In this document: in pieces, positions 2,043 through 19,211 of the stretch
How positions within the stretch are numbered: position 1 is the stretch's first letter
Layout of the letters: the number at the start of each line of letters is the position of its first letter
Virus record (IMG/VR): IMGVR_UViG_3300009128_000001
DNA from: an uncultured virus (IMG/VR IMGVR_UViG_3300009128_000001)
Lineage: Duplodnaviria; Heunggongvirae; Uroviricota; Caudoviricetes
Length of the DNA stretch: 64,000 nucleotides
Reading direction: 5' to 3' (one strand)
Position numbers and translations under genes: made by a program
Notes under the pieces: generated by a model
Database searches by the model: none
What the model was told of the DNA's origin: nothing
What the model saw: the letters and a program-made list of their open reading frames with translations, nothing else

Positions 2043-2045
2043 CAT

Positions 2046-3324: not shown

Positions 3325-3327
3325 GAA

Positions 3328-3600
3328 ATGATAGACAAGATTAGAAAGAATTTAATATTGAACATATTTTTGGGGATATTGACGATAGCTTCGATGGTAT
3401 TATACATGTTGTGGGATCATGCGGCATTTATAATGGTAGCTAATGTATGTTGGATATATTGGATAGTATTTTTCATATTGCATTTAGTTAAGGCGGAGCG
3501 AGAGGAGTCGGCAGATGTAGGTCGCGAGCGCACATTAGAGGAATGGGAAGCGATAGCCGAGATTAGGGCCGAGCGGAAGCGTAAGCGGGATAGAGACTAA
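3328..3600 (+). CDS. small membrane protein (2 TM)
   Basis: Two hydrophobic segments and a charged tail. Confidence 0.6.
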   Translation: MIDKIRKNLILNIFLGILTIASMVLYMLWDHAAFIMVANVCWIYWIVFFILHLVKAEREESADVGRERTLEEWEAIAEIRAERKRKRDRD

Positions 3601-3656
3601 GGACTGGGGATATTTCAAGAATTTAGCGGATCAACAATTTCAAGAGATAGTGGAAC

Positions 3657-3899
3657 ATGATGATCTGTGTAAGGGATGGTGTCGTGAATGGTTGGAGGGA
3701 AGAGATGAAGGAACTAATGACGAGGACGAACAAGATATGTTTAGTGATAGCGTTGATATTATTGGGGCTGATAATATATGAGTACACGTACAATCGGCCT
3801 GAAGTGATACGGGATGGAAGTGGAGCGACTAATTTTGGGCCTGAGAGGGGAGACCTGCAGGAGCGGGGTTATCAGGGAATAATAGATGGCGGGTTGTAA
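3657..3899 (+). CDS. small single-TM protein
   Basis: Hydrophobic stretch ICLVIALILLGLIIY; true start may be a downstream ATG. Confidence 0.5.
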   Translation: MMICVRDGVVNGWREEMKELMTRTNKICLVIALILLGLIIYEYTYNRPEVIRDGSGATNFGPERGDLQERGYQGIIDGGL

Positions 3900-3990
3900 G
3901 GGCACAAAAATTCGCGCGACGCTTAATAGATTATACTAATAATAGCTTATATTTAGTGAGGTAATTATATCAAACTAAATAGGATATCCA

Positions 3991-4593
3991 ATGATTAAAA
4001 GGCTCTTAAAAATAGCGAATAAATTTGAACACACGATTTATGCGGCCGACAATAAGGCGGAAGAAAACAAACAAATACAAACCGCCATGAACGCAGCAAA
4101 AGAGGCGCTAAAAACGATTAAGGGAGTTTTTCGGTATGATCCTAAAAACCTCCAAAAATTCGGAACTTTAATGGGGCAACTAGATCGCACTCCCCCATTG
4201 CAGATTGACGGTATGATGGGCCCCAAAACCATAGCTATGGGCAATTTATTTGTACAACTATACGGTGCATTTCGTAGTGTTTGGAATCGATTAGAGCTAA
4301 ATCAGACAGCAAAAACAGATTTACATATGCTATATTTTGGTCTGGACAAATTAAATAAAGCTGTTCACACATTACATAATTCGGCGCTTAAAACGTCAGG
4401 TCAGGAGGCGCTAAAGTTGTTTAATGGGGGCATTCAACATATTAAAGATATGGAAAGCAAAATGCAAACATGGGCTCAACAATCTAAAAGCGCACCGAGA
4501 GCGAACGACATAGTAGAAGAGGCAGCCCGAGCCAAAAAGATTATTCAAGATGTGCAGCAAACCTTTCAACCTCTTCAACCAAAAAAACAATAA
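3991..4593 (+). CDS. putative virion-associated protein with LLKIA leader and peptidoglycan-binding-like motif
   Basis: N-terminus MIKRLLKIANKFE; LQIDGMMGPKT resembles the PG_binding_1 DG..Gp.T signature; AATA-N6-TATA upstream. Confidence 0.55.
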   Translation: MIKRLLKIANKFEHTIYAADNKAEENKQIQTAMNAAKEALKTIKGVFRYDPKNLQKFGTLMGQLDRTPPLQIDGMMGPKTIAMGNLFVQLYGAFRSVWNRLELNQTAKTDLHMLYFGLDKLNKAVHTLHNSALKTSGQEALKLFNGGIQHIKDMESKMQTWAQQSKSAPRANDIVEEAARAKKIIQDVQQTFQPLQPKKQ

Positions 4594-4858: not shown

Positions 4859-5066
4859 AGAGATGTGGCTGACGATGTTTAGGAGTGTGTGGTTTACAAC
4901 ATTCATGACAATAATGGTAGGATGGGGAGCATTATCATTAATCATTAAGGGCGAGATGGACTTCTTTTGGTTTATATTTTACGCGCTAGGATTATATTGT
5001 GGGATAAGGTGTGTACAGAAGGCAAAAGAGTGGCAAAAGGATAATAAAGAGGTAAAAAAGGAGTAA
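4845..5066 (+). CDS. small membrane protein
   Basis: Two hydrophobic helices, overlaps upstream stop, GGAG RBS. Confidence 0.6.
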   Translation: MEKLREMWLTMFRSVWFTTFMTIMVGWGALSLIIKGEMDFFWFIFYALGLYCGIRCVQKAKEWQKDNKEVKKE

Positions 5067-5445
5067 AAGTATCTAGAGATATCTTGGAATTCTGAATAAT
5101 GGGATATTTAATATAGGGTGAAGAAGTTCTGGCAGACATTAAAGTATATAGAGAGAAACTTATTATTAATATTAGTGGGTCTCGTAGGAATCTCTATATT
5201 ATTGCCATTAGCGATATTTATGGGCGTGTTATATTTACTATTTATTTTAATTGGAAATATAATACATTTAATTTACTATAGAAAATGAACACAATATTTT
5301 TAGCAACGGGAGTTTTAACGATATTCTTATTATTGGAATTAATGATAAGGTACAGTTGGAAAAATTATATACAAAGGAAATTTCGCGCAAAGAAATAGCT
5401 ATTATAGTTGTCGAGAACCTGTGGAAAACCAGCACTAACAAGAAT

Positions 5446-5898
5446 ATGAACAAGAGAAAAAAGAAGCATAGGAATTTATACTTTGAAGCATCATATGAAA
5501 TATTAAAAGATTATTGTCAAAACAGTTTAAGGTTAGAGGTAGTAGAGCGGCATCACATAGCGGACGAGATAAGTTATTGGGATCGGGAGATAACGATAAA
5601 TTCTCAACACAACATAGAGACCAAAGTATATGTATTATTGCACGAGATGGGGCATGCATTAGCGGCTCGCGGGAAATATTATGCCTACAAGCACAGCAGA
5701 GCCAACAAGAAATACGCACGGAATGTAATAGACAAGGTAGCAACAGTTGGAGAAGAGTTTGAGGCTTGGGATCGTGGTCTTATGTTAGCGAAAAGACTGG
5801 GGATTCAGATTAATCGTGATAAATTTGATCATGAGAAGAGCATAAGTTTAGCGACATGGTTCAAGTGGGCATTAAAGCGTGGGAATCAGGAGTATTAG
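5446..5898 (+). CDS. HExxH zinc metallopeptidase-like (ImmA/IrrE-like) protein
   Basis: LLHEMGH plus downstream EEFEAW; ATG 5446 preferred over TTG 5356. Confidence 0.6.
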   Translation: MNKRKKKHRNLYFEASYEILKDYCQNSLRLEVVERHHIADEISYWDREITINSQHNIETKVYVLLHEMGHALAARGKYYAYKHSRANKKYARNVIDKVATVGEEFEAWDRGLMLAKRLGIQINRDKFDHEKSISLATWFKWALKRGNQEY

Positions 5899-6069
5899 AT
5901 GGATTTATCGTCATTTTTTGGATTATTATTGGTATTATTTTTTGTAGTATGCGGAGTTATATCTATCAAGAAGTGGTAACTGAATGGAAGATTATTTTGT
6001 AATACTTGCCATTATGGTATTCATTGGATTATATTTAAACGATAGATACCCATGTGACAGACGGCGTAA

Positions 6070-7101
6070 ATGAAGATATTATATTCAGCTGGGAACAGAG
6101 TTGGGGCCGGATTACAACTCTATGAATTTCTTAAGTCTACCAATCATGAGGTAAAGGTCGCGGCATATTCAAAGTCATCTCAATTATTAACACATATAGA
6201 TTGGACATTGGACGCATTATTTCACAAATATTCTATATGTGACAGGGTAAAGTTGACGGAGTTATTTGGAACATACAACATACCATTATCGGGAACAAAA
6301 GAGGCGCAGATATTAATTTCAGACATTGATGATTATGCTCCTGACTTAGTAATATGTGATGGAGAGGGATTAGTAGCTAACATTGCGAAATCAATGGGTA
6401 TAAAGCTATGGTATTGTAGTCCATTACATTTATTAGACGGGATAAAGTGGGAAAGGAATCAGCGCAGATATTTATCATCATTGGAGGGGACGCGTAAATT
6501 CTTATATAAATTACCCATCGCGGATCGCACATTAGTATATTCACCTTTTGGGGATGTACATATGCGACCGATATTAAAGGAGGGATATGAGTGGGTTCGT
6601 CCATATTATCATTCTATTGAGGGCAGATCTGAGAGGAGCAAGCGGATAGTAATAATAAGGGGAGCGGATCGCATATCAAAATTGAGCAAGATATTAAATT
6701 GTATTGCTCCATTTGATTTGACAATGTTTAGCGCATTTTCTTATGATTTTTCTCATTTGGATACAAGGAACATAAATTGTCTGAAGAAGTATGGGCAGAT
6801 GTTATCGGAATGTAGTTGGTATTTTACAACAGGCGAGACGAACCATGTAGCGGATGCCATTTACGGAGAGGTAGGAAGAATTTGTATTACACCTAATTTG
6901 GAGGATCCGGAGACATTATTAAACGCGATATTATGTACGAGTTATAATTTAGGAGATGACATAGCGCAAGTGGAGCGTCTGGGGAAATTTGCAGTAGAAG
7001 TTATTGAAGAGTCCATTAAAAATCCCAGAACAAACAAAGATTATTTAAGCATTCAAAATCGAAAAACATTGGACGAACTGGTAGGAGAAGAAGATGCTTA
7101 G
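6070..7101 (+). CDS. divergent GT-B glycosyltransferase-like protein
   Basis: MKILYS.G start and PDLVICDGE..VANIAKSMGI resemble MJ1255-type glycosyltransferases. Confidence 0.5.
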   Translation: MKILYSAGNRVGAGLQLYEFLKSTNHEVKVAAYSKSSQLLTHIDWTLDALFHKYSICDRVKLTELFGTYNIPLSGTKEAQILISDIDDYAPDLVICDGEGLVANIAKSMGIKLWYCSPLHLLDGIKWERNQRRYLSSLEGTRKFLYKLPIADRTLVYSPFGDVHMRPILKEGYEWVRPYYHSIEGRSERSKRIVIIRGADRISKLSKILNCIAPFDLTMFSAFSYDFSHLDTRNINCLKKYGQMLSECSWYFTTGETNHVADAIYGEVGRICITPNLEDPETLLNAILCTSYNLGDDIAQVERLGKFAVEVIEESIKNPRTNKDYLSIQNRKTLDELVGEEDA

Positions 7102-7420
7102 AACATATTCGCCATTACGGGACGGAATACAATTAACAAACAAAATGGTCGAGGATGGCCATGGTCCTTATGATAGATATATATGCGGAGATTGCAAAGG
7201 GACCGGGTACAGAGATGTAGGAGCTTGTGGTTCTTGTGAGGGCTGCGGAAAATTATGTTGGAAGCCATTTTTATATGATGGGTTGGATGACATGTTGGTA
7301 ATAGTTCCGGGCAAATTTTATAATATGACCCGAAAGCAATGGGAGGAGCATTTGGGAAAAGAGATCGGGTTATTGGAGGAAGCATTTAGAGAATATGAGA
7401 GAGAGAGGAAGCATGAGTAA
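7094..7420 (+). CDS. protein with DnaJ-type CxxCxGxG zinc motifs
   Basis: CGDCKGTG and CGSCEGCG. Confidence 0.6.
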   Translation: MLRTYSPLRDGIQLTNKMVEDGHGPYDRYICGDCKGTGYRDVGACGSCEGCGKLCWKPFLYDGLDDMLVIVPGKFYNMTRKQWEEHLGKEIGLLEEAFREYERERKHE

Positions 7421-8063
7421 GAAATGTGTAGCATTTGATATTGGTAATGTATTATGCGAGGTAGATTTAAACAAATTTATTGGTCCATATAATTCTGAGG
7501 TGCATCATAGTTGGCGAGAGAATTTTGGAGCTATAGAATTTTTAAATGACGCATTGCAACATCAGCAAGACATAGGGATAACCACAGTTGGGAAAAAACT
7601 AACCGAGCTTTGTTTATTTGGGTGTCCAGATTTCCAAGAGCGAAAAATAATGAGGTTGGAAGAAGCTTGGAATGATACAATTATAATTCATGATATGATG
7701 ATTAAATTCAAGAATGATTTATTAAGGCGCGGGGTGCAAGTAGCTTTATTAAGTAACATGGGATTTGAACATAAAGAACACATTAAGGAGAATCATCCTG
7801 AATTATTTGAAGGCTGTATATTACATTTGAGTTGTGATGTTGGGGCAAGAAAGCCCTCCAAGTTATATTTCCAAAGTTTCTTATTAGAGCACCCGGAATT
7901 TAGGGGCGCTCTATATATTGATGATCGCTTGGACAATTTAGCCATGGCGGAACAGATGAAATTCCGTCCGTATCACTTTGAGTTAGAAAAAGTATTAGAA
8001 CATACAGATCATCAAAAAGAAGAATTATGGCGTAATTTGAGGTGGTGTATTTTTAAAAAATAA
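7413..8063 (+). CDS. HAD-superfamily phosphatase (YihX-like)
   Basis: FDIGNVL motif I, LLSN motif II, RKP motif III, YIDD motif IV. Confidence 0.8.
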   Translation: MSKKCVAFDIGNVLCEVDLNKFIGPYNSEVHHSWRENFGAIEFLNDALQHQQDIGITTVGKKLTELCLFGCPDFQERKIMRLEEAWNDTIIIHDMMIKFKNDLLRRGVQVALLSNMGFEHKEHIKENHPELFEGCILHLSCDVGARKPSKLYFQSFLLEHPEFRGALYIDDRLDNLAMAEQMKFRPYHFELEKVLEHTDHQKEELWRNLRWCIFKK

Positions 8064-8070
8064 ACCAAAC

Positions 8071-8113
8071 TCTCTGTTATATTAGTTAATGTAAACAATT
8101 AATATAGCAGAGA
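8071..8113. terminator. long intergenic hairpin (possible terminator or processing site)
   Basis: 17-bp stem 8071-8087/8097-8113 with two G-U pairs, just after the HAD gene stop. Confidence 0.4.
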
Positions 8114-8118
8114 AAATA

Positions 8119-8289
8119 ATGATATTATACAAAACATTAGATCGAGAAGAAATCCTTGAATGGTTGGCTATGTTAATTGTCAGCAGATTACCACGAGATG
8201 TAAATGGAGATATAGAGGTATCCTACAATGATGATGATGGGGTAGATATTACCGTATTGCCAAAAATTAAGTCTGGTGTGGTAAATTAG
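8119..8289 (+). CDS. small hypothetical protein (56 aa, below ORF-track cutoff)
   Basis: ATG 8119 to TAG 8289, MILYKTLDREEILEWLAML... Confidence 0.45.
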   Translation: MILYKTLDREEILEWLAMLIVSRLPRDVNGDIEVSYNDDDGVDITVLPKIKSGVVN

Positions 8290-8312
8290 CAATATTTAAG
8301 TATAAAATTACT

Positions 8313-8858
8313 ATGAAAAAGCTATTAAAAATTGCCAAAAGATTTGAAAGCCAAATTTCTAGAGTTGCCGGCGGACCACGACTAATGTGGACAAAAGAAG
8401 ATATGGATGAACAGCGCCGCATAGCAATAAAAGACATGTTAGATAAAGGTCGCACCGTTGAAGAGATAGAAGCTGCCGGAATTGAGGTGCCTGCTGATCT
8501 TATTCCTCCGACCACAGTTGAGGAAGAGACAGAGTCTATACCAGAAACATTACCCGAGCCTACAGAGGTTGCCCCGCCTACAGTTAAGGAGCCGGGCAGA
8601 GAATGGCAGGAAAAACTACAAGTAGAAAACGATTATACATTAACCAATGCGGACGTTAAGAAGATTGAAGATTTATTAAGATTCCGCATAATGAGCTTGG
8701 AAAGAAATAAAGATAAAGAATTGAAAGAAAGGCGAGAAAAATTACTAACCACCCCAGGTTATGAATCTAGCCCAGATTATGAATCCGCGACATCTATAAC
8801 AAGTGGATTTGACAGAGAGATCAATAGAATTAGAGAGATATTAAGTAAGTTACAATAA
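8313..8858 (+). CDS. putative virion-associated protein with LLKIA leader, acidic Pro/Glu linker
   Basis: MKKLLKIAKRFE leader nearly identical to that of 3991; AATA-N6-TATA at 8291-8304. Confidence 0.6.
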   Translation: MKKLLKIAKRFESQISRVAGGPRLMWTKEDMDEQRRIAIKDMLDKGRTVEEIEAAGIEVPADLIPPTTVEEETESIPETLPEPTEVAPPTVKEPGREWQEKLQVENDYTLTNADVKKIEDLLRFRIMSLERNKDKELKERREKLLTTPGYESSPDYESATSITSGFDREINRIREILSKLQ

Positions 8859-8862
8859 TTTA

Positions 8863-9705
8863 TTAAGTATAAGAATATCTTTTAACTCCCGGAGTATTGG
8901 CAACAGCTTTATACCATTCCGGATGTTTAGATATATCATCCATTTTGGCCTTCTCAACTTTTCCATCTGGATGTATAACCTCGACATTACTATCTATTGG
9001 TCTAATCCATGAAGCATATTCCCAATGATCCCTGGGGCTATGTCCTGTAACCACACTTCCCTCTAAAGGATTTTTATCTTTACCTTGCCAACCGCCAAGG
9101 CCCAGCTTATCAGGATTTCTGGGAGCAAGTATATCTTTTCCATGCCCAGCAACCAATCCTTTTTTTCCTTCAGTTAATTTGTTGGTCTTTTCGTTATAAT
9201 CAAGGCCCGCAGTATTTCTATTAATATGTGAAGCAACAACTTTATCTGGCGGAATGTATCTACCTTCAGGTGTCGTATAACCGCTCGAACTTAAGGGAGT
9301 TGCTCTAATTCGATTTTCCGGTTTAGTTGCCGCAAGAATTTGTCCTGACTGTTTCCATGACGGCAAGTTCAGCTTAAAGCGATCGACAATTTTTTGTGCT
9401 GTTTGTCCGGACACAGAAATTCTAACACCATCTATCATAAGGTAATCAGGCAACACTTTATATCTAAATTTCATTCCATTTGGCCCTTGGACAGTTATTG
9501 GAACCATATTTTTACGTATGCTATCGTATGTATACCGCTTGAATATTTCCGCCAAAATTAATTTTTCGCGTTCTGGTCCATGTCCAACCGCCAATAATTT
9601 CTCTTTAAAGCTAATTTTTTTAGGGCCAAGTTCCTGTTCAACCAGCTTAGTTAATGTTCCGGCGGCTATTTTTTTGAGTGCCATTTTTCTAAAATTTTTA
9701 TTCAT
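8863..9705 (-). CDS. conserved uncharacterised protein with ALKKIAA leader
   Basis: PDYL, TAQKI, LVAGHGKD, GWQ, H..EY motifs recall a bacterial hypothetical family; ATG 9705 has a GAGG RBS. Confidence 0.55.
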   Translation of the reverse strand: MNKNFRKMALKKIAAGTLTKLVEQELGPKKISFKEKLLAVGHGPEREKLILAEIFKRYTYDSIRKNMVPITVQGPNGMKFRYKVLPDYLMIDGVRISVSGQTAQKIVDRFKLNLPSWKQSGQILAATKPENRIRATPLSSSGYTTPEGRYIPPDKVVASHINRNTAGLDYNEKTNKLTEGKKGLVAGHGKDILAPRNPDKLGLGGWQGKDKNPLEGSVVTGHSPRDHWEYASWIRPIDSNVEVIHPDGKVEKAKMDDISKHPEWYKAVANTPGVKRYSYT

Positions 9706-9770
9706 GTCGAGCCTCAAAAGTATTCAAAAATATTGATAATGTATTGCTTAAATCCGCCTAAATTTTGTTA

Positions 9771-9799
9771 TTGACATTTTGACGCCAACTGATTATATT
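9771..9799 (+). promoter_or_regulatory. sigma70-like promoter of PARP gene
   Basis: TTGACA-17 nt-TATATT. Confidence 0.65.
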
Positions 9800-9840
9800 A
9801 TAACGTATGGTCGCGAAAATATTGTGGGAGATAATTAACA

Positions 9841-11319
9841 ATGGCAGTAAAAGTAAATAAAGCGCCGCTACTAGCTGATGGAAAATATGATGTTCAAGAA
9901 GTCAAGGAGTTGAATTTCTTTGATTTATCGGGGCAGAAGGCAAAAACCAAAGGAACGAGCAATAAAAGCTACCATATAGAGCTGCAAACGGCGAAGAGTG
10001 GTGATAAAGCTCAGTTGTACAGTATGTGGGGTCCTACTGGGGGACAACAGCGTGAAGACTGGAGATATTACGATTCAGAATTTGCTGCTCGTAAAGATTT
10101 TGAAAAGATCATCAAGTCCAAAAAGAAAAAGGGCTATGTTGAGGTTGATGTGGCCCAACGCGCGTATGGTTCTAAGGAAGCCAAACAAATAACCAAATCG
10201 GTCATACTAACAAACGCACAGCAGGTCGATCCAAAAGCACCTGTATGTAAGTTGCAGCCTAAGGTACAGGAGTTAGTATCTAAATTATTTGGTAGCACAA
10301 ATGACTTCGTTATTACCACGCTAAAATGTCCGTTGGGCCAATTAACCAACAACCAAATTGATAAGGGGAGGGATGTTTTACAAGAGGCCGAAAAGCTAGT
10401 AAAACAGAAACGAAAAAACAAATCTAAGCTGGAAGATTTGACCAACCAATTTTATGCGGCCATTCCTCATAATCTTGGGTGCGGATCTCGCGGACAAATG
10501 ACGCATCTAATCTTGGACGATCCTATGAAGATTGCTCAAAAAGACGCTGATTTGGATACACTATTAGATGCCAAACAGGTAGGCGCAGTTCTAACCTCAG
10601 ACAATATTACAGATCAATATAATAGTTTAAATTCAGAAATTGAATATTTAGATCCAAAAAGCTATGATTTCCAATGGATAGACGCCATGATTCAAGGAAC
10701 TAGGGCGAGTAATCATCATTGGCTTGGAAAAATCAGGCTACAAAATGTTTGGACAATGAGCAGAAAGGGCGAATCTGATTTATTTTTCAAGAATGCGGAA
10801 AAAATTGCTGGCGCCTGTGGAAAACAACCATTGCCTTCAAAGCTTGCTAAATACGTCAAGGAGCGCCCGAAGATGCCCAAGGGTCATGGCACCCTATTTA
10901 CCAAAGCAAACGTTCTACCGCTCTGTCATGGCACTAGAACGGCCAATTTAATCGGTATCACCAGGAATGGCTTTCTAATTAGGCCATCGGGGGCAGTTTT
11001 AACAGGAGCAATGTACGGAAATGCGGTATATTTCGGCATGTTTTCAAAGGCTGCGAATTATGCCAGTGTAAGATCTTCATATTGGGCTCAGGGAAATGAT
11101 GATACAGGGTTTGTATTTTTATCTGATGTAGCGCTAGGCAAACAAAAAGTCGCGGGGTATTCTGGGAGATATACGTTAAATAATATTAAGCCATGTCACA
11201 GCGTTTGGGCCAAGGGAGGTCACAGTGGCGTAATTAATGACGAGTTTATGGTATACAATCCTGCGGGCAAAAATCAACAACATAAAATCAATTATTTGCT
11301 GGAGTTTAAATGTGGTTAA
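9841..11319 (+). CDS. poly(ADP-ribose) polymerase-like protein (WGR + regulatory + catalytic domains)
   Basis: WGR-like N-terminus (NKSYHIEL, WGPTG, FEK...K.KKGY), regulatory domain (PLGQLT..QI.KG, LTNQFY..IPH), catalytic H-Y-E (HGT, GAMYGNAVYF, KAANY, NDEFMVY). Confidence 0.9.
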   Translation: MAVKVNKAPLLADGKYDVQEVKELNFFDLSGQKAKTKGTSNKSYHIELQTAKSGDKAQLYSMWGPTGGQQREDWRYYDSEFAARKDFEKIIKSKKKKGYVEVDVAQRAYGSKEAKQITKSVILTNAQQVDPKAPVCKLQPKVQELVSKLFGSTNDFVITTLKCPLGQLTNNQIDKGRDVLQEAEKLVKQKRKNKSKLEDLTNQFYAAIPHNLGCGSRGQMTHLILDDPMKIAQKDADLDTLLDAKQVGAVLTSDNITDQYNSLNSEIEYLDPKSYDFQWIDAMIQGTRASNHHWLGKIRLQNVWTMSRKGESDLFFKNAEKIAGACGKQPLPSKLAKYVKERPKMPKGHGTLFTKANVLPLCHGTRTANLIGITRNGFLIRPSGAVLTGAMYGNAVYFGMFSKAANYASVRSSYWAQGNDDTGFVFLSDVALGKQKVAGYSGRYTLNNIKPCHSVWAKGGHSGVINDEFMVYNPAGKNQQHKINYLLEFKCG

Positions 11320-11320
11320 T

Positions 11321-11716
11321 ATGAGATTTTCGCCTCAAGAAAAAGAGCTAATATATTCAGCCCTAAAGCAGAGGCATAATAAAATCCAAAAATTATATTA
11401 CCAATTAGATTTCTCATTTTATGAACACAACTTAAAGCGCCAATTGGTATTAATTATGAATCAACTAGATAAACTGTCTAATTTTATTGGCGCGAATGAC
11501 ATTGTCGAATTAGAAGGATTATCCAATGATGAAGTAGCATTAATAAAAATGGCGCTCCAATCTAAAATAGAGCATTTAAGGATAAGGTATATAAAGTTTT
11601 CGGCCAAACATTCTGTAGAAAAATACGTCAGAAATAACCTGGATGAACTAATAGGGAGATACATAGAATTACAGAAAGATATAATGTTTGCTACATCGGA
11701 TCATCATGTTTTTTAA
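11321..11716 (+). CDS. hypothetical helical protein with internal duplication
   Basis: ELIYSALKQR..KI / ALIKMALQSKIEHL repeat; ATG 11321 directly follows PARP stop. Confidence 0.55.
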   Translation: MRFSPQEKELIYSALKQRHNKIQKLYYQLDFSFYEHNLKRQLVLIMNQLDKLSNFIGANDIVELEGLSNDEVALIKMALQSKIEHLRIRYIKFSAKHSVEKYVRNNLDELIGRYIELQKDIMFATSDHHVF

Positions 11717-11939
11717 TAAGAAAAATAAAAAGAAAAAAATAGTAGATAATGAGGTTGTGTGGGAAGAAGGAAACAATAGGATATTACTCAATAATAATAA
11801 GAAATTGATTGTAGAGAGAAAAATGAGACTAGACTCTTATCACTGCGAACCATTTTGGGCCCAAGAAAGCAATCCTATGCGAGTAATGAAGGCTGTTGGC
11901 AGGGCGTATCTAAAGCTATTGTTGGAAAAATATGAGTAA
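11706..11939 (+). CDS. hypothetical protein
   Basis: ORF coupled to upstream gene. Confidence 0.5.
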   Translation: MFFNKKNKKKKIVDNEVVWEEGNNRILLNNNKKLIVERKMRLDSYHCEPFWAQESNPMRVMKAVGRAYLKLLLEKYE

Positions 11940-12002
11940 TATATAAATTGATCGAGCAAGACAAGGGCCCTGGTTATTATTTTTGGTAATCGGGGCCGAC
12001 TA

Positions 12003-12758
12003 TTATTTATCACCGTTTTTCACACGTTTTAACCATTCTTTTGCCGGCATACACCCCTTTTTAGAATTGCAAGATGTACAAGAGGGTCTGAAGTTAGATA
12101 AGCAATGTGGACCTCCTAGATATAATGGTTTTAGATGATCTATACAATCAAAAGGGCCACCACAATAAGCGCATCTATTTTGAAAAACAGAAAGCCTATC
12201 TTTTAACTGAGATGATGTGAATTTATATATTGTTGCGCGATTTTTTCTTGCCCTACGTCGGTGGGCCATCTCTAAAACTTTTGCAGGATTATTCTTTTTC
12301 CATCTTGCAGCACTTTTGTGGGCATTTTCTTTATTATTTTTGTAATATTTTTTTATAGCTTCTGTCCTTTTATTTTTATTATTTTTTAACCATTTCTTTT
12401 TTATGTTATTAGATTTTTCTCTATTTTCTTCTGCCCACTTTTTGTTTCCATCTAATATTTTTTTTCTATTCGGTTTATATCTTATATCTGAATAACATTT
12501 TCTACATAAACTTTGGTAACCATCTTTTCGCTGAGAGTTTTTACTGAAATTTTCAATTTTTAATTCTTTTTTACAGTGTTTACATGTTTTGGTTTTTATA
12601 TCCGGCTTCGTAGCGTTTTTCAATTTTTCATGAGATTTTTTGGCTCCTATTTTTCTACAACTCTTGCATTGAGAAGTTAATCCGTCAGGCTTGCTTCTCT
12701 GAATATGAAATTCCGTCTTTTCTTTTTCGAGCCCACACTTAGAACATTTCTTTAGCAT
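12003..12758 (-). CDS. HNH homing endonuclease with tandem Zn-ribbon repeats
   Basis: Two KxCxxC...F...DG....CxxC repeats; CAYCG...IDHLKPL..GGPH..SN..PSC..CN..K; antisense to neighbours. Confidence 0.85.
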   Translation of the reverse strand: MLKKCSKCGLEKEKTEFHIQRSKPDGLTSQCKSCRKIGAKKSHEKLKNATKPDIKTKTCKHCKKELKIENFSKNSQRKDGYQSLCRKCYSDIRYKPNRKKILDGNKKWAEENREKSNNIKKKWLKNNKNKRTEAIKKYYKNNKENAHKSAARWKKNNPAKVLEMAHRRRARKNRATIYKFTSSQLKDRLSVFQNRCAYCGGPFDCIDHLKPLYLGGPHCLSNFRPSCTSCNSKKGCMPAKEWLKRVKNGDK

Positions 12759-12841
12759 AATAATCACCCTGTTTATATGATGATTTATTGCCTGTTCTTG
12801 ATGTAAATTTTCGCAACTTACTAAAAAATAAGGATAAAATA

Positions 12842-13948
12842 ATGTTATTGCAAACTGGCCTCTCATATGACGACGTCCTCTTAGTCCCTCAAAGAAGCAA
12901 TATACCCAGCAGATCTGATATTGATTTATCGGTATATCTCGGCAAAGGCATACAATTAGATGTTCCTATCGTCTCGGCCAATATGAAAAATGTAACTGGT
13001 TCTGAAATGGCTAAAAAGATTGCAAAAATGGGCGGTTTGGGATTATTACATAGATTTTGCTCTGTCGAAGAGCAAGTAGACATGTTTAAAGATGCTGCCG
13101 GTAATTATAATACTCTTGGGTGTTCTATTGGTGTACAGGATAAGGATTTTGATCGAGCCGCAGCGCTAATTGAACATGGTTGTGAGATTATTTGTATTGA
13201 CGTTGCACATGGTCATAGCGAGTTATGTTTGAAAATGACGAGCACATTACGCGATTATATAGAGCACCAAAAACTTAATGTTCTTATTATAGCCGGAAAT
13301 GTCGCAACAGCTAGAGGGGCTGAAGATTTATATCAAGCCGGCGCAGATGTAATTAAAGTTGGAATTGGCAGCGGTTCATTATGTAGTACCAGATTAGAAG
13401 CCGGAGCTGGGGTTCCTCAATTAACAGCTCTGGAGAATTGTTTTCATGCAAGCTTGGCAACCAAAATGTATGAAAGTAATGTAAAAATTGAGAGCAACAC
13501 CCATGCTGGCGGTGTAGTGAATCTCGGACCACATGAGATATGGGATTGGGATGCGCCTAGAAAATTCAAGATTATAGCTGATGGTGGAATTAGGCGCGCT
13601 GGAGATTGTGTAAAGGCATTAGCATTTGCTGACGCTGTAATGCTAGGAAATGTTTTAGCCGGCACAGATGAGGCTCCAGGAAATATTATTACAATCAATG
13701 GTATAAAATATAAAGAGTATGAAGGATCTAGCACACATAAGAGCAAGCATGTCGAAGGTGTCAAAGGGATGGTTCCTCTAAAAGGACCGGTTAATTTGGT
13801 GGTAGAAAAATTATTAGAGGGAATTCGCTCTGGATGTTCATATCAAGGCGCGGAAGATCTGGAAGAATTAAAAGAATGTGCGGAATTTATACAGATTAGC
13901 GGGGCAGGATTAGCAGAGAGTCACCCGCATGATATATATTTAAAGTGA
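12842..13948 (+). CDS. IMP dehydrogenase / GMP reductase family protein (no CBS domains)
   Basis: LSYDDVLLVP, SANM, IDVAHGH, GIGSGSLCSTR, IIADGGI, EG..G.V; YEGSS instead of YRGMGS leans to GMP reductase. Confidence 0.9.
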   Translation: MLLQTGLSYDDVLLVPQRSNIPSRSDIDLSVYLGKGIQLDVPIVSANMKNVTGSEMAKKIAKMGGLGLLHRFCSVEEQVDMFKDAAGNYNTLGCSIGVQDKDFDRAAALIEHGCEIICIDVAHGHSELCLKMTSTLRDYIEHQKLNVLIIAGNVATARGAEDLYQAGADVIKVGIGSGSLCSTRLEAGAGVPQLTALENCFHASLATKMYESNVKIESNTHAGGVVNLGPHEIWDWDAPRKFKIIADGGIRRAGDCVKALAFADAVMLGNVLAGTDEAPGNIITINGIKYKEYEGSSTHKSKHVEGVKGMVPLKGPVNLVVEKLLEGIRSGCSYQGAEDLEELKECAEFIQISGAGLAESHPHDIYLK

Positions 13949-13955
13949 GAGGAAA

Positions 13956-14192
13956 ATGAATTTATACACTGTAGGCGGCATTAAAGATACTATTAAAATG
14001 TTTTACCCGACCGTAAAGGAGGTTAGGGTAAAAGAACATATGGGACAATTTAAAGTTACTATAACTGTTATTTTGTACAAATATTCGTGGTTTTATTTAG
14101 GAATCATGCATTATATTATTAAGAAAAAAATAGAAAAATTAGTACATGATCATGGCGCATATTACTACGAATATAAAATCAAGGTAAGATAA
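13956..14192 (+). CDS. hypothetical protein
   Basis: GAGG RBS, operon position. Confidence 0.55.
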   Translation: MNLYTVGGIKDTIKMFYPTVKEVRVKEHMGQFKVTITVILYKYSWFYLGIMHYIIKKKIEKLVHDHGAYYYEYKIKVR

Positions 14193-14193
14193 C

Positions 14194-15021
14194 ATGGATA
14201 AAGAACTAATGAAAGTACATTTATTAATTATTGATCCTCAGGTAGATTTTTGCGATGAGGATGATGGGGTATTAGCTGTTCCTGGAGCAGATGATGATGT
14301 TAGACGATTGGCTCGCTTTATAGATAAGGCCGCCCCTTTTATTGATGAGGTTATAGTAAGTCTAGATATGCACCATAAATATGATATTTCTCATCCGTCA
14401 TGGTTCATAAATACAAAATTAGAATCTCCGGAGCCTTTTTCACAAATAACGGCGCAAGATTTAGAAGAGGGAAAATGGTGTACTGTTCATAATGGACATT
14501 TTGAGCGCACATTAAATTATTTAAAGAAACTAAAAGACAACGAAAGATATCCTCATACTATATGGCCAGAACATTGTCTTATCGGATCTCATGGAGCAGC
14601 AATGGAGATATATGTTGAAGATGCTGTATATAAATGGGCGCATAGGCAAGGCACTGACCCAAGATTTATCATGAAGGGAATGAACCAATTTACTGAACAT
14701 TTTAGCGCGGTTAGAGCGGAAGTAATAGATGATGACGATCCTTCTACCGCCGAAAACCAAGAACTATTCAACACAGTATTACAGGCTGATATGATATTGT
14801 TAGCGGGGGAAGCTGGATCACACTGCCTGGCTAATACGGCACTAGATTTAGTTAAACATTTCGGACACATGCATGCCGCGGAAAAGTTAGTGCTGCTTAG
14901 TGATACTACATCTCCCGTTCCTGGGTTTGAATATTTACAGGAAGGTTTTATTAAAAGGTTGACACCGCTAGGAATGCGAGTTAAAACTACAAAAGAAATG
15001 ATAGAGGAATTATGTTCATAG
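14194..15021 (+). CDS. pncA: nicotinamidase (isochorismatase family)
   Basis: IIDPQVDF, G.LAVPGA, SLDMH, WPEHC..GSHG, KG, GEAGSHC catalytic Cys. Confidence 0.85.
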   Translation: MDKELMKVHLLIIDPQVDFCDEDDGVLAVPGADDDVRRLARFIDKAAPFIDEVIVSLDMHHKYDISHPSWFINTKLESPEPFSQITAQDLEEGKWCTVHNGHFERTLNYLKKLKDNERYPHTIWPEHCLIGSHGAAMEIYVEDAVYKWAHRQGTDPRFIMKGMNQFTEHFSAVRAEVIDDDDPSTAENQELFNTVLQADMILLAGEAGSHCLANTALDLVKHFGHMHAAEKLVLLSDTTSPVPGFEYLQEGFIKRLTPLGMRVKTTKEMIEELCS

Positions 15022-15596
15022 AGCAACAAGTTGGAATGATAGCTATATCTTATCTCGGGAGAGTAATAGGATATGACCGCAATATGTTATTTTTTAATCA
15101 TCATGCTTATTGGGATAGATTTAGCGAAGTAACAGATGATTCAATATTGATCATGGGAAACAGAACATTCAATCTCATTCCAAAAAAAATATTGCACAAA
15201 AAACCAAAACACGTATTAAGCCGTCATGCGCAAGGTTATTATCCAGACACTCAATGGTTTGGAGATTTTAATGATGCATTATTAGCTTGTCCGGTAGATG
15301 CTAAAATTTGGATTGTTGGCGGTTTAGAAATATTTAATCTTGCATTGCCGCTAAGGATTCCAGATTTCGTCGATCTTACAATAGTAGAGCGCACATATAT
15401 TCCGCCCATGCAAGATCCGCCAATTACTATTAAGCAAAAAGTGGAAAGATTGGATGCTATACCGCTAGACTATTCAATAGATTTTGAATATGAGAATCCA
15501 GAAGACGAAACATTACTTCATAGAAGATATTTTTTAAGAAAGAAAAAAGGGACAAAATCGTTTATTAATGAATTGCGCGAAAAAGTGAGTGGCTAA
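15012..15596 (+). CDS. dihydrofolate reductase-like protein (divergent)
   Basis: RVIG, LIMGNRTF, VLSR, IWIVGG.EIF, LTIV. Confidence 0.7.
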   Translation: MFIEQQVGMIAISYLGRVIGYDRNMLFFNHHAYWDRFSEVTDDSILIMGNRTFNLIPKKILHKKPKHVLSRHAQGYYPDTQWFGDFNDALLACPVDAKIWIVGGLEIFNLALPLRIPDFVDLTIVERTYIPPMQDPPITIKQKVERLDAIPLDYSIDFEYENPEDETLLHRRYFLRKKKGTKSFINELREKVSG

Positions 15597-15624
15597 TATT
15601 TTCGCATATATATGGTGTAGTAAT

Positions 15625-16137
15625 ATGAGAACAGTAATAATATTAAGAGGCGTACCAGGCTCCGGAAAATCTACATTTGGCCGGAACCTAATCGAAGAGG
15701 CTAAAAAGCAACAACTGAACACAAAAACAGTAAGTGCCGATCACTTTTTTAATGAATTTGGTGAGGATGGCGGAGAATATAGGTTTGATCGTTCTAAGCT
15801 AGGGACGGCTCATGCCAAATGTTTTCGAAACTTTATAGATGGAATGCAAAAAGGCTCTGATTTAATTGTGGTAGATAATACCAATACGTCCAGCATAGAA
15901 ATAGCCCCTTACAGACAAGGGGCTCATGCGTATGGGTATGACGTAGTAATTAAAACAGTTATGGCAGATCCTGAGGTTGCTTTTGAGCGAGGTTTGCATG
16001 GAGTGCCTATATCCGCAATCAAAAGAATGCACGAAACACTTCATAGAAATCTGCCGCCATATTGGGAAAAGCAGGAGGTATACAGATCGGCAACAACAAC
16101 ATCTGGAGAAGCTATTTTTGCATTAGAAGTAAATTAA
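15625..16137 (+). CDS. P-loop polynucleotide-kinase-like protein (AAA_33 / N4BP2-like)
   Basis: ILRGVPGSGKST, SADHFF, AH..C, VVDNTN, HGVP. Confidence 0.8.
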   Translation: MRTVIILRGVPGSGKSTFGRNLIEEAKKQQLNTKTVSADHFFNEFGEDGGEYRFDRSKLGTAHAKCFRNFIDGMQKGSDLIVVDNTNTSSIEIAPYRQGAHAYGYDVVIKTVMADPEVAFERGLHGVPISAIKRMHETLHRNLPPYWEKQEVYRSATTTSGEAIFALEVN

Positions 16138-16155
16138 CATAGTGAGGACAAATAT

Positions 16156-16530
16156 ATGCCCCGAACACAGGACGCAGGCGCAGCACCTAAAGATAAACAG
16201 AGAGAGCAATTCCTAATCAAAGTAAAAACATTAGAATTAGCCAACCAAGTCCGAAAAGAAATCTTATTCGGAATTAAGCCAAGAATGTGGGTATACGTTA
16301 TTGCCACCCCTCGCGAAGAAGATTTTTATGATATTTTTGTGGCAAACGAACACGGCGGCTCTTTAGAAGACGAAAGAGTAAAAAGCGCCCAATTATTTAT
16401 AGAAAAATTCTTATCGGATAATGACCTTAATATAAAAGAAGAGCCCATTACCAAAAAGGGCTCTTCAGAAGCATCAGATCAGCCTGCTGAATCTGTTGAA
16501 GATTCCGCTAGTCTACAGAAACTGTCTTAA
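16156..16530 (+). CDS. hypothetical protein
   Basis: GAGG RBS, 124 aa. Confidence 0.6.
   Translation: MPRTQDAGAAPKDKQREQFLIKVKTLELANQVRKEILFGIKPRMWVYVIATPREEDFYDIFVANEHGGSLEDERVKSAQLFIEKFLSDNDLNIKEEPITKKGSSEASDQPAESVEDSASLQKLS
16431..16466 (-). terminator. possible intrinsic terminator for the M23-CCA gene
   Basis: Minus strand GAAGAGCCC-11 nt-GGGCTCTTC-TTTTATA about 40 nt past the 16508 stop; lies inside the opposite-strand CDS. Confidence 0.35.
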
Positions 16531-18856
16531 TAAAAGCGATAGCCGCTTCCTTAGTCATTTCAGGCTGTTTGTACATCTCTTCTTTTAGAGCGCGTACCAC
16601 CTGACCAACATGTTTGCCCTCAGTTAATCCTAGGATATTCATGATTTCTCGACCATCTATTGGTGCTTTTACATTCTTTTTGCCACCAGTCATTTTCAGA
16701 TAGTCATTAATCACATTTACAAATACATCATATTTTTTAAGTTCATCCGGATCTTTTTTGGATTTACCCATTGCATCACTCTTAGAGATTTCAATTAGAC
16801 TCGGCCAATCTTTTTCTCCTACTTTGTCCAATAATTTTCTAAGAGCCTCGGGCCTAGTATTGGCGGCATAATTGTGTAACCTCATATGATATCTTATAAG
16901 ATTAACAACACGCTCTCTAATTCTGTTTGGCGCTTTTAGGTCTTTTAATATTTCATCCGCCATTAGAGCCGAAGAATGATGATGGTCATGATATGTGCTA
17001 TGTCCCTTTTTGGGGTGTATTTGTTTTGATCTCGGATCTCCCTTTCCAATATCATGAAGTAACATAGCCAAATTTCTCACCAGCTCGTCATCTTCTTTTC
17101 TACCATTAGCCTCAGGATGATCCGACAATTCGTTTAAATACTTGAGTGACGCCAAGGTGTGTCCCCAAATATTCATATCATGGTATGGATTATTTTGATC
17201 CATCTCCCAAGAAGTAAATCCCTCTTCCCACTTTAATGGTTTACGAGACTTTCTTTTACTCTTTAGTTGTCTTTCTACCGCCCGATCAAGTTGATCCTTG
17301 GTTGGCTTTAGCAACAAATCTCTCAACCCTAATTTTTGTAATAATTCCGCCGCCTTGTGGAAGTTTGGGCCAATCATAAATCCGCGTTTCCAGCCATCTT
17401 TTTCTTCTTGCCCGGCCAGCTCTGTCCAAATTCTTTCTTTGGTAATTTTGTTTTCTAGCGCTTTTTGGACAATGGGATTTTTAGCGGCCTCAATAGCTGC
17501 CGGATCTAATTCAAGATCATATTTGGCGGCAAAACGAATAAGCCTCAAAATTCTTAAAGGATCATCTAGATAAGTTTGCAGAGGATCGATGGGAGTTCTG
17601 GCGCCTCTTTTTTTAATATCTTCAATGCCACCCACATAATCTTCAATTTGGCCGGTGTTGATATTATAAAACAAACTATTGATTGTCAGATCTCTTCGCT
17701 TAGCATCTTCTTCCGGCAAAACGCCTACTACAATTTTTGGATTTCTAGATTTGCTATCATAAACCTCGGTCCTTAATTGCGCAAAATCAATGTGAAAACC
17801 AAGAACAGGCAACATTGCGGATTCCATATGCTTATTTGCTTCAACATTAGCGTCCACAATAGTAACTTCATCGGCGGTTGTATATCCATTTTCTTTCATC
17901 CACTTTAACGCCAACTCAGCAAATTTCTTTCCGCTAATATTATCTGTCACAACATCAATATCATGAGATGGCCTGACCATTAATTTATCTCGAACCCAAC
18001 CGCCAGCCACTCTTAAATTAGTAGTAGGAGCTTTGTCCTCAACTACTTTTAATAATAGGTTAAAGACATCTTTCTCCTTATCTGTCAGTTTGAAATCCAT
18101 ATCTAATTCTGCGGCAATTTTTTTAATAGCAACAGCTCGATATTGTTTATTCAATTGCGATTTTGAGAATTTTTCAAAAATATTATACATTTTTTTAATA
18201 GATTCTGCGGCCTTAGATAATGAGCCTACCGGCCTTCCAATTATACTATGCGGATCTATATATTTACTAGCCCTAAACCTTCCGTTATCATCAAGCTTGC
18301 CTAGTGAGGTTTCCCAATGCAAATGATCACTGGTAGCATTCCCTGTCTGACCAACGGTACCAATTACTGTGGTGGGTCCAACTTCTTGACCTGGAGATAC
18401 ACTTACGGAATGCATATGGGCATAATACGAACCTACCCTGCCATTTTCATGAACTATTTTTACTGTTTTCCCGCCTTTAGAATATATTGGCGTACTAATA
18501 ACCACACCTGGGCCCATTGGATAAATTGGCGTGCCTTGTGGCGCATTTAAATCCATACCATTATGACCATGAGGATGTCCTTTGTTTATATATTTGCCAG
18601 GAATAAATGTGCCAACAATCCAAGGTTTTTGCCCCTCTTCTAATTCGGCATATTCCGCTGCATGTACTGGGCCTCCAATTCTTGTTATTTGGACGGGCCA
18701 TTGATATGTTCCCCCTTCAGTAGGAGTTGTGGGCTCTAGTGGTTCGCCCTCATCGTCTAATACGGCCGGACCAATATCAATAGATACAGGTTTATCCAAT
18801 AATTTGCTCATTGCGCCAGAGAACTCGCGCGAAAATTCATTGCTTCTTTTTTTCAT
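16508..18856 (-). CDS. cca: M23 peptidase fused to class II CCA-adding tRNA nucleotidyltransferase with HD domain
   Basis: M23: HNGMDL, YYAHM, HLHWE; CCA: VAGGWVRD, DIDV, RTEVY, EEDAKRRDLTINSLFYN, DDPLRILR; HD: H...LLHDIGK...H...D. Confidence 0.9.
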   Translation of the reverse strand: MKKRSNEFSREFSGAMSKLLDKPVSIDIGPAVLDDEGEPLEPTTPTEGGTYQWPVQITRIGGPVHAAEYAELEEGQKPWIVGTFIPGKYINKGHPHGHNGMDLNAPQGTPIYPMGPGVVISTPIYSKGGKTVKIVHENGRVGSYYAHMHSVSVSPGQEVGPTTVIGTVGQTGNATSDHLHWETSLGKLDDNGRFRASKYIDPHSIIGRPVGSLSKAAESIKKMYNIFEKFSKSQLNKQYRAVAIKKIAAELDMDFKLTDKEKDVFNLLLKVVEDKAPTTNLRVAGGWVRDKLMVRPSHDIDVVTDNISGKKFAELALKWMKENGYTTADEVTIVDANVEANKHMESAMLPVLGFHIDFAQLRTEVYDSKSRNPKIVVGVLPEEDAKRRDLTINSLFYNINTGQIEDYVGGIEDIKKRGARTPIDPLQTYLDDPLRILRLIRFAAKYDLELDPAAIEAAKNPIVQKALENKITKERIWTELAGQEEKDGWKRGFMIGPNFHKAAELLQKLGLRDLLLKPTKDQLDRAVERQLKSKRKSRKPLKWEEGFTSWEMDQNNPYHDMNIWGHTLASLKYLNELSDHPEANGRKEDDELVRNLAMLLHDIGKGDPRSKQIHPKKGHSTYHDHHHSSALMADEILKDLKAPNRIRERVVNLIRYHMRLHNYAANTRPEALRKLLDKVGEKDWPSLIEISKSDAMGKSKKDPDELKKYDVFVNVINDYLKMTGGKKNVKAPIDGREIMNILGLTEGKHVGQVVRALKEEMYKQPEMTKEAAIAFIKTVSVD

Positions 18857-18941
18857 GGTATTAAATAATTTAGGATATATACAATTATGCGTTTAAAGTG
18901 ATATAACACAAACAGTTCGAGCTTGTGCCTCTCGATACGAT

Positions 18942-18970
18942 AATATAAATACTAATTCGATTTTTGTCAA
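18942..18970 (-). promoter_or_regulatory. sigma70-like promoter upstream of M23-CCA gene
   Basis: TTGACA (18965-18970)-17 nt-TATATT (18942-18947), same boxes as the PARP promoter. Confidence 0.55.
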
Positions 18971-18980
18971 GAGTTTTATT

Positions 18981-19208: not shown

Positions 19209-19211
19209 ATA

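Follow-up and report, generated by a model that had tools for sequence, protein, structure and literature searches.

We analyzed a 64,000-nucleotide stretch of DNA from an uncultured virus of the Caudoviricetes (IMG/VR record IMGVR_UViG_3300009128_000001; the whole stretch is referred to here as the window) and found that it carries an intact three-domain gene of the PARP family (H-Y-E class, ARTD). The best explanation of this gene is that it encodes a PARP-family NAD+-dependent ADP-ribosyltransferase of a huge phage, predicted to be catalytically competent, and the clade to which it belongs lacks the activation arginine of the WGR domain. This clade-wide loss is, as far as the sequences indicate, the respect in which this PARP variant is new. 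We regard it as probable that the enzyme is an active and regulated transferase used in infection, that it is transcribed by the host polymerase, and that its activation lies off the arginine-dependent DNA-break route, possibly with a macrodomain protein as its partner. PARP biology is known almost entirely from eukaryotes. An earlier note on this DNA had described a full PARP1-like enzyme behind a bacterial-type promoter and had interpreted it as an early, DNA-break-sensing, poly-ADP-ribosylating enzyme; what it observed is confirmed, and its interpretation receives partial support. The gene and its parts are as follows.

9841-11319 (+): PARP gene, a single open reading frame (ORF) of 492 aa with an ATG start, comprising WGR, helical regulatory and catalytic (ART) domains
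9943-10146 (+): WGR domain, residues 35-102 (Pfam PF05406, E 2.4e-9, 37.6 bits against a cut-off of 22)
10246-10626 (+): PARP regulatory (helical) domain, residues 136-262 (Pfam PF02877, E 5.5e-19, 69 bits against a cut-off of 26.8)
10660-11292 (+): PARP catalytic (ART) domain, residues 274-484 (PF00644, E 5.6e-20, 72.1 bits against a cut-off of 26.7)
10765-10911 (+): helical insert of the ART domain, lying after its first strand and ahead of the H-G motif, residues ~309-357 (from alignment and model)

Each of the three domains scores above its curated Pfam cut-off, and among all PDB sequences the closest to the window PARP are PARP2 and PARP1 (E ~3e-22). An AlphaFold model built with 23 relatives as input (mean pLDDT 78.9, pTM 0.59) matches the PARP1 WGR-CAT chain 8g0h_B (Foldseek E 5.6e-24, prob 1.00, TMq 0.57) and the PARP2 chain 7aeo_A, both of which take in the WGR domain, as well as the catalytic domains of PARP1 and PARP2 (prob 1.00). 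In this model the WGR domain forms a beta-sheet plus helix (block pLDDT 85-94) and the regulatory domain is helical. These domain, PDB and structural matches bear out the PARP1-like architecture described in the earlier note. Matches among predicted viral structures were the PARP of Bodo saltans virus and two proteins of ~415-420 aa, one of them from "Bacteriophage sp." and annotated as NAD(+) ADP-ribosyltransferase, and the sole PHROG match of the window PARP (phrog_23333, "polymerase") covers the catalytic part. The window PARP shares its three-domain order with the WGR-HD-ART core of human PARP1 and PARP2 (7aeo, 8g0h, 4dqy), with aligned H-G-[ST], Y-F, S-K-x-x-N-Y and N-E motifs and Foldseek E values of 1e-23 to 1e-24 (prob 1.00); it differs from the human enzymes in its ~20% identity, in having no zinc fingers or BRCT domain, and in carrying Pro in place of the WGR Arg.

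The catalytic residues are H363 (in H-G-T-R), Y397 (V-Y-F), Y407 (S-K-A-A-N-Y) and E468 (N-D-E), with H363, Y397 and E468 aligned to the HGS, YF and NE motifs of PARP1/2, and the H-Y-E triad is unchanged in 23 of 23 aligned relatives. A word-indexed search returned 295 homologues of the window PARP at E<=1e-5, the best 120 of which are 47-100% identical to it, 458-512 aa long and located on contigs of up to 459 kb; all 120 have the PARP and PARP_reg domains and 111 have a WGR call. Among these best 120, H363 and Y407 are kept in every sequence and Y397 and E468 in 119 each, so the active site is under purifying selection. The statement of the earlier note that the catalytic domain retains H-Y-E is correct.

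The WGR domain is where the clade departs from other PARPs. In place of W-G-R the window PARP reads W63-G64-P65-T66-G67, the "WGP" variant already remarked on in the earlier note (residues 63-65), with K97-G98-Y99 conserved. Across the best 120 homologues the motif reads [WYF]-G-[PA]-[TV]-G. None of them has Arg at position 65, where 89 have Pro, 30 have Ala and one has Gln; the Trp position, at which an aromatic residue contacts the DNA end in DNA-dependent PARPs, is occupied by W (59 sequences), Y (51), F (9) or H (1), and Y99, which we take to correspond to PARP2 Y188, is kept in all 120. In the set used for the phylogenetic tree, Pro or Ala occupies the position in 18 of 18 clade rows that cover the motif, whereas outside the clade 98 of 105 PARP rows with a residue at this position have Arg. 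The passages of Langelier et al. (2014, PMC4081085) on WGR mutants report that DNA-dependent activity is lost in each of three mutants, R591A of PARP1, R140A of PARP2 and R103A of PARP3, and that DNA-independent activity is unaffected in the PARP2 and PARP3 mutants; similarly, G58 and R59 are given as the top-scoring WGR positions across 72 bacterial PARPs in the corresponding part of Garcia-Saura et al. (2018, PMC5966428). With an arginine required in PARP1/2/3 replaced by Pro or Ala across the clade, the DNA-break sensing proposed in the earlier note is weakened, and activation would lie off the canonical arginine-dependent route.

To place the window PARP among its relatives we used a tree of 130 rows (quick IQ-TREE search, LG+G4, SH-aLRT support; unrooted, with few labelled tips and without HaPARP of Herpetosiphon aurantiacus and CdPARP of Clostridioides difficile CD160). 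The window PARP falls in a 20-row clade (support 97) with the related IMG/VR loci L004, L006, L008 and L009 and an Omnitrophota fragment. This clade is nested in a 47-row group (support 97) that adds a second IMG/VR clade (L010-L014), three Kofleriaceae-type rows (two loci from metagenome-assembled genomes (MAGs) and the representative P0123) and two metagenome groups of 13 and 5 rows, and named Bacillota, Bacteroidota and eukaryotic PARP1-like PARPs fall elsewhere. The phylogeny against bacterial PARPs that the earlier note proposed accordingly sets the window clade apart from the named Bacillota and Bacteroidota sequences; from an unrooted tree without HaPARP and CdPARP we infer neither a donor nor a direction of transfer. 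On the Kofleriaceae MAG contig of L030 (189 kb), a PARP of the same superclade as the window PARP, with the WGR Arg retained, divergently adjoins a NAD-dependent DNA ligase with a BRCT domain (974-2926 (-) and 2977-4482 (+)).

When 1.84 billion cluster representatives were searched exhaustively, 2,571 matched at E<=1e-3, 1,064 at E<=1e-10 and 32 at E<=1e-30, with about ten full-length clusters above 270 bits followed by a fall to ~150 bits at 28-34% identity. The 20 representatives looked up among the nearest relatives outside the clade bear organism names in three cases, namely a plasmid-encoded protein of Aneurinibacillus and the PARPs of a butterfly and of Paramecium. A metagenome scan returned four distant loci and none of the relatives at 70-76%. 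Bacterial PARPs are not rare in cellular genomes: a genome scan with a 7-sequence Bacillota-type alignment (30 diverse PARPs being too divergent for the purpose) detected 159 relatives, many on contigs of megabase size, in genomes that include Bacillus, Syntrophomonas, Spirosoma, Larkinella, Kofleriaceae and Saprospiraceae.

A second departure lies in the catalytic domain, where the interval from the first ART strand to the H-G motif measures 41-63 residues in the 47-row group (53 in the window PARP) vs 15-26 in other PARPs. Relative to human PARP1 and PARP2 the insert adds roughly 33 aa ahead of H-G, modelled as three helices (block pLDDT 74-91), and it is the reason why the PDB alignments break into two stretches. 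Because sister groups that retain the arginine share the insert, it is older than the arginine loss, and it is a feature of the wider clade rather than of the Arg-less clade alone. The region before the catalytic Glu is short: the stretch G433-E468 spans 34 residues vs 58-63 in eukaryotic PARP1-like rows, and in pairwise alignment the "ALG" strand is separated from the Glu by 24 residues vs 50, making the window PARP ~26 residues shorter here than human PARP1 and PARP2. All non-eukaryotic PARPs compared are short at this point (30-45 residues), and the triad of the PAR-forming CdPARP, given as H322/Y359/E428 in the relevant part of PMC5966428, is spaced closely to H363/Y397/E468 of the window PARP. 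For these reasons the short loop was dropped as an argument for mono-ADP-ribosylation.

The gene appears to be part of a short transcription unit, marked by the following elements.

9771-9799 (+): sigma70-type promoter, TTGACA (9771-9776), 17 nt, TATATT (9794-9799); read directly, score 11/12
9827-9830 (+): Shine-Dalgarno-like GGAG, 10 nt ahead of the ATG; read directly
11321-11716 (+): ORF of 131 aa from the ORF list, 1 nt past the PARP stop and probably co-transcribed
11966-11997 (+): terminator-like hairpin with a 14-bp stem and a weak T tail, between the PARP unit and a convergent HNH gene

The promoter lies 41 nt upstream of the PARP gene, inside a 123-nt gap (9718-9840) between divergent genes. 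Loose sigma70-like matches in 5001-25000 are no more frequent than expected by chance (82 vs 73.7 +/- 9.5); the strict pattern TTGACA-N16-18-TATAWT, in contrast, occurs 4 times in the 64-kb window vs 0.12 expected, with at most one occurrence in each of 100 shuffles. Two of the four strict copies stand in an intergenic gap facing a gene, namely the PARP copy and 18970-18942 (-), which precedes the gene at 16508-18856. The hairpin folds at -22 kcal/mol (z -4.97), and none of 200 shuffles was as good. The near-consensus promoter TTGACA-17-TATATT named in the earlier note is thus present, and its strict pattern is above chance. Together, the promoter, the Shine-Dalgarno site and the hairpin outline a putative two-gene unit read by a host-type polymerase, and a near-consensus sigma70-type promoter ahead of the PARP makes transcription by the host polymerase, perhaps early, plausible. 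The second gene of this unit, the 131-aa ORF, has no Pfam, PHROG or NCBIfam match, and tblastn against 21 related loci gave no match for it either. Between the PARP and its conserved upstream neighbour, the window alone has two family-less ORFs, at 8313-8858 (+) and 8863-9717 (-), and their insertion accounts for the divergent gap that holds the promoter; in the 14 related loci (described below) the PARP directly follows a co-directional gene.

Three further genes of the window bear on ADP-ribose or NAD+ metabolism.

23136-23636 (+): SCO6735/BT1257-type macrodomain, candidate eraser (Pfam Macro, 1.2e-6)
21619-22503 (+): NAD+ synthase NadE (Pfam 1.7e-42; TIGR00552, 146 bits, over the cut-off)
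14194-15021 (+): weak nicotinamidase or isochorismatase-like N-terminus, uncertain (PF00857, 26.6 bits against a cut-off of 27)

The macrodomain aligns over its whole length with PDB entries 2fg1 (BT1257; 7.4e-38), 2afc (7.8e-38) and 5e3b (SCO6735; 1.8e-34), and SCO6735 is described as taking Glu-linked mono-ADP-ribose off PARP1 E988Q and PARP10 in the part of PMC5087735 dealing with its activity. It differs from SCO6735 and BT1257 in being phage-encoded and 13 kb from a PARP, and its role as an eraser is putative. With the record of L010 left out of the counts, a Macro match is present in 4 of 5 related phage records (three over the Pfam cut-off) and in 1 of 4 further records, the three without a match being 10-30% complete, and an ARH gene is present in 1 of the 5, the complete record that has no Macro. 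Every related record of at least 49% completeness (6 in total) consequently has a Macro or an ARH gene, with one of the Macro matches falling below the Pfam cut-off. No PARG or ARH family was found among the 48 window ORFs of at least 100 aa that were scanned, the window being a fragment. Bacterial-type PARG (PF10021) was found in 0 of 5 related phage records by a scan whose positive control in D. radiodurans responded; for eukaryotic-type PARG (PF05028) the result was likewise 0 of 5, but the control was silent, which makes this result uninformative. The gene at 14194-15021 also matches NF008623 (E 1.1e-9), over residues 6-72 only, and PDB entry 3pl1 (E 0.0098).

Several observations weigh against the reading of a host-transcribed transferase with altered activation and a possible macrodomain partner. 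The macrodomain gene is 13 kb downstream of the PARP and outside its operon, the pairing may be coincidental, and the macrodomain could instead counter host defences that act by ADP-ribosylation. We treat the pairing as a hypothesis because macro domains are said, in the portion of PMC7824862 that covers them, to be common in jumbo phages generally, and our counts have no PARP-free control set. Of 5 related records, only 1 has NadE alongside the PARP; for this reason, and because the nicotinamidase match is weak, we do not claim an NAD-salvage module. In the WGR domain an aromatic residue stands at the Trp position in 119 of 120 homologues and K-G-Y is kept, so DNA-dependent activation may still proceed by a modified route. 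The promoter is not conserved, the best upstream match in the 14 related loci being 7-10 of 12 positions; the "early" expression of the earlier note is therefore plausible for the window phage, from its host-type promoter, and does not extend to its relatives. Finally, our literature search found no assay of any phage PARP.

The chemistry of the product is a separate matter, on which the earlier note had argued from H-Y-E to poly-ADP-ribosylation. PARP4, an H-Y-E enzyme, carries the name of a mono-ADP-ribosyltransferase in the PDB, so the triad is necessary and not sufficient for chain synthesis, and the C-terminal half of the window PARP aligns to PARP4 without length change. Given this, and with no PARG found, the argument was overstated, and sequence by itself cannot settle whether single units or chains would be added. 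A canonical alternative, which is the view of the earlier note and of a 2024 paper on jumbo phages (PMC11662467), holds that the enzyme senses DNA breaks and, like PARP1/2 and the bacterial HaPARP, makes poly(ADP-ribose) where phage DNA is nicked or ends, so that repair is recruited or organised there. The shared three-domain architecture and H-Y-E triad are consistent with it, as are the conserved aromatic residue at 63 and Y99, and HaPARP and CdPARP, of the same architecture, are reported to make PAR in vitro with activated DNA in the sections of PMC8120803 and PMC5966428 concerned, the near-identical triad spacing of CdPARP (PMC5966428) removing the short loop as an argument against chains. 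Moreover, the Myxococcota superclade relative (L030) adjoins a DNA ligase gene. The same alternative has to contend with the absence from all 120 close homologues of the WGR Arg needed in PARP1/2/3 (PMC4081085), with the lack of a bacterial-type PARG in the window and in the five related records, where both working bacterial PAR systems have one according to the part of PMC5966428 describing them, and with the lack of a ligase or repair gene beside the window PARP in Pfam and PHROG scans. We consider the canonical alternative unlikely.

The phage setting of the gene is supported indirectly though consistently, mainly by its relatives. A single-protein scan of IMG/VR had returned no relative, but an alignment-based scan recovered 14 full-length relatives at 39-54% identity on contigs of 54-459 kb, 11 of them at least 200 kb. 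Comparison of the window genes with L001-L009 by tblastn shows at least 8 neighbouring genes shared in order around the PARP: homologues of 6070-7101 and 7395-8063 just upstream, of 12788-13948 downstream, of an M23-CCA enzyme, of two RNase T-type exonucleases and of the genes at 31703, 32058 and 33339. Both of the syntenic records that were checked carry a large terminase (phrog_675, E 1.7e-61 and 1.8e-50); Pfam PF03237 had given sub-threshold matches only, in 2 of 5 records, and PHROGs on those ORFs settled the assignment. CheckV completeness is 100% and 91% for two related records. Among 185,579 prokaryote species genomes (one each), clade-specific patterns produced 15 matches; a single one proved to be a true relative, and it lies on an Omnitrophota MAG contig of 2,848 bp. 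The clade is found almost only on phage contigs. The window itself has two HNH endonucleases and no tRNA, 32 of 49 scanned ORFs are without a PHROG match, and no ribosomal or other housekeeping family occurs among the 48-49 ORFs scanned.

It could be argued that the window is cellular DNA, whether a mis-binned or a proviral segment, and its PARP a bacterial gene. Such an origin would fit the lack of a capsid, portal or terminase match in the scan of the window ORFs, the "provirus" label of related record G003 in IMG/VR, and the occurrence of one relative in an Omnitrophota MAG and of superclade members in Kofleriaceae MAGs. Opposed to it are the conservation of gene order with terminase-bearing IMG/VR contigs and the completeness of two related records, the content of the window (two HNH genes, many family-less ORFs, giant repetitive fibre-like proteins, neither tRNA nor housekeeping family) and the small size of the Omnitrophota contig. 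We regard a cellular origin as highly improbable, and the assignment to a phage made by the earlier note stands. A megablast of 9000-24000 against 50,697 phage records gave no match. A related huge phage (locus L023, 877-3834, of record G005) has a large terminase of 985 aa in which a LAGLIDADG endonuclease-like segment, at residues 310-483, precedes the terminase part; this segment may be an intein or an inserted homing endonuclease.

Phage PARPs as a kind are already catalogued. PARP genes were listed in Aeromonas phage Aeh1 and Cellulophaga phage phi4:1 (Perina et al., 2014, PMC4245714) and "in few jumbo phages (e.g., BBA65562.1)" (Iyer et al., 2021, PMC7824862), the PARP family was counted among the most frequent viral ADP-ribosyltransferases (ARTs; Iyer et al., 2022, PMC9503650), and many gut NAD-jumbo phages were reported to carry a "DNA damage sensor PARP1" in the relevant part of a 2024 Microbiome paper (PMC11662467). 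Novelty can accordingly not be claimed for a phage PARP as such, and what is new here is the clade-wide arginine loss, which is unmentioned in the literature searched. A 2026 preprint on the coupling of the PARP regulatory and catalytic domains does not mention phages. The annotated phage PARPs (Xanthomonas phage XacN1 (BBA65562.1), Klebsiella phages vB_KpM_FBKp34 and 05F01, Stenotrophomonas phages CM1 and RAS14, Cellulophaga phage phi4:1 and Aeromonas phage Aeh1) and the gut NAD-jumbo "PARP1" resemble the window PARP as phage-encoded H-Y-E PARP-family genes, all of them uncharacterised. The window PARP matches 16 of 50,697 GenBank phage records and none of the matches covers 80% of it; those to phage isolates are confined to the catalytic part (residues ~356-492, 31-39% identity), and the best match, an uncultured 595-kb phage, covers residues 169-489 at 28% identity. 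In the unrooted tree the window clade forms a branch of its own.

In-vitro activity outside eukaryotes is stated in the corresponding part of Mikolcevic et al. (2021, PMC8120803) to be available for HaPARP and CdPARP only. These two share with the window PARP a compact WGR-regulatory-catalytic form, a similar size and the H-Y-E triad; compared by description, as given in part of PMC5966428, they keep G-R in the WGR domain, are paired with a DUF2263-type PARG and reside in cellular genomes, whereas the window clade has Pro or Ala, has no PARG found and lies on phage contigs. The likeness to T4 Alt, ModA and ModB is functional only, as phage ADP-ribosyltransferases used in infection: the T4 enzymes are R-S-E mono-transferases without a WGR or helical domain, and no R-S-E Alt/Mod family occurs among the Pfam or PHROG matches of the window PARP.

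Phage PARPs have been suggested to act like phage ARTs on host proteins, with the difference that they add chains, in the passage of Iyer et al. (2021, PMC7824862) devoted to them. This suggestion lends support to host takeover or anti-defence without signalling, in which the enzyme would mono-ADP-ribosylate host proteins, for instance those of transcription or translation, in the manner of Alt, ModA and ModB but by H-Y-E chemistry, or consume NAD+, or ADP-ribosylate nucleic-acid ends against host nucleases. A host-type promoter would fit early expression of such an enzyme, and the alignment to the mono-transferase PARP4 without length change and the absence of a PARG from the window ORFs and related records point the same way. 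The clade, however, keeps the WGR domain and the autoinhibitory helical domain, which argues for a regulated enzyme rather than a constitutive toxin-like one, and a phage NadE is ill-suited to deliberate depletion of NAD+. We consider host takeover or anti-defence improbable as an account of the gene.

Under the reading that we prefer, of a regulated transferase activated off the arginine-dependent route, host RNA polymerase would transcribe the PARP in infected cells, and the enzyme would attach ADP-ribose, as a single unit or several, to acidic residues of its own chain and of target proteins. Access of NAD+ would be gated by the helical domain, as in other PARPs, and the WGR domain would still dock on nucleic acid, with activation being constitutive or triggered by a cue other than the arginine-dependent DNA-break route of PARP1/2/3. 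The SCO6735-type macrodomain would strip protein-proximal ADP-ribose, making the mark reversible, and the phage NadE would help to sustain the supply of NAD+. Taking the arginine loss and the insert jointly leads to a more specific and more tentative proposal, which we hold to be possible though doubtful: throughout the clade the enzyme would be a rewired sensor that no longer responds to DNA breaks. Its cue would instead be specific to the phage, for example RNA, a partner protein or an intermediate of replication or packaging, and with the macrodomain, and no PARG, it would form a reversible switch based on ADP-ribosylation within the infected bacterium.

The genes around the PARP vary among relatives. 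No small partner gene is conserved after the PARP, since the following ORF differs at the sequence level among the 14 related loci: it encodes a LAGLIDADG endonuclease in L004 and L008, a protein of ~525 aa in L001, L002 and L005 and one of 514 aa in L014, with DUF4379 zinc-finger matches in the three of these that were scanned, L001, L002 and L014; in L006 Cpn10 and then IMPDH follow, and the remaining loci have no matches. Mostly homing-endonuclease-like genes follow the PARP in the relatives, and in the window an HNH gene lies on the other strand just beyond the PARP unit (12003-12866 (-); a second is at 20800-21444 (+)); selfish elements seem to use the site for landing. An IMPDH/GMP-reductase-like gene at 12788-13948 (+) is near the PARP in 8 related loci too; as listed, with a TTG start, it shares 79 nt with the end of the HNH gene, and for that reason its true start may lie further in.

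Elsewhere in the window, the gene at 16508-18856 (-) encodes a 782-aa protein in which an M23 peptidase, a CCA-adding/poly(A) polymerase head and an HD domain are fused; it has its own strict sigma70-type promoter (18970-18942) and is conserved in L003, L004 and L009. The block 30749-34049 (-) lies 20 kb from the PARP and has homologues at ~3300-7400 in L001-L009; in these relatives the homologues of 33339, 32058, 31703 and 30749 are directly upstream of the homologues of 6070 and 7395 and the PARP, and the position of the window block at this distance and on the other strand shows that a rearrangement has taken place. The region 37505-63989 (-) encodes three giant paralogues (2487, 2417 and at least 3032 aa) that are Gly/Asp/Thr-rich and internally repetitive, with no Pfam or PHROG match. 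Three paralogous ORFs of ~270 aa (45110-47580) lie between the first two of them, and the N-terminal Cys-rich motif of these ORFs also begins a 776-aa protein at 35168-37501. The giant and ~270-aa paralogues resemble a cassette of fibre or adhesin genes.

Taken as an annotation, the find is nothing unusual. Its interest lies in a large and well-conserved clade of compact PARPs in huge phages, with hundreds of sequences, under purifying selection so clear that the enzyme must matter in infection. The loss of an arginine that links DNA binding to activation in PARP1/2/3 poses the question of what switches the enzymes of this clade on, and provides a natural experiment for the model of allosteric PARP activation. 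If the nearby macrodomain is an eraser, the two genes would form a minimal writer-eraser pair that can be studied in bacteria, and if the proposal of a rewired sensor is true, a phage would for the first time have an ADP-ribose signalling circuit of its own, as distinct from a one-way, toxin-like modification.

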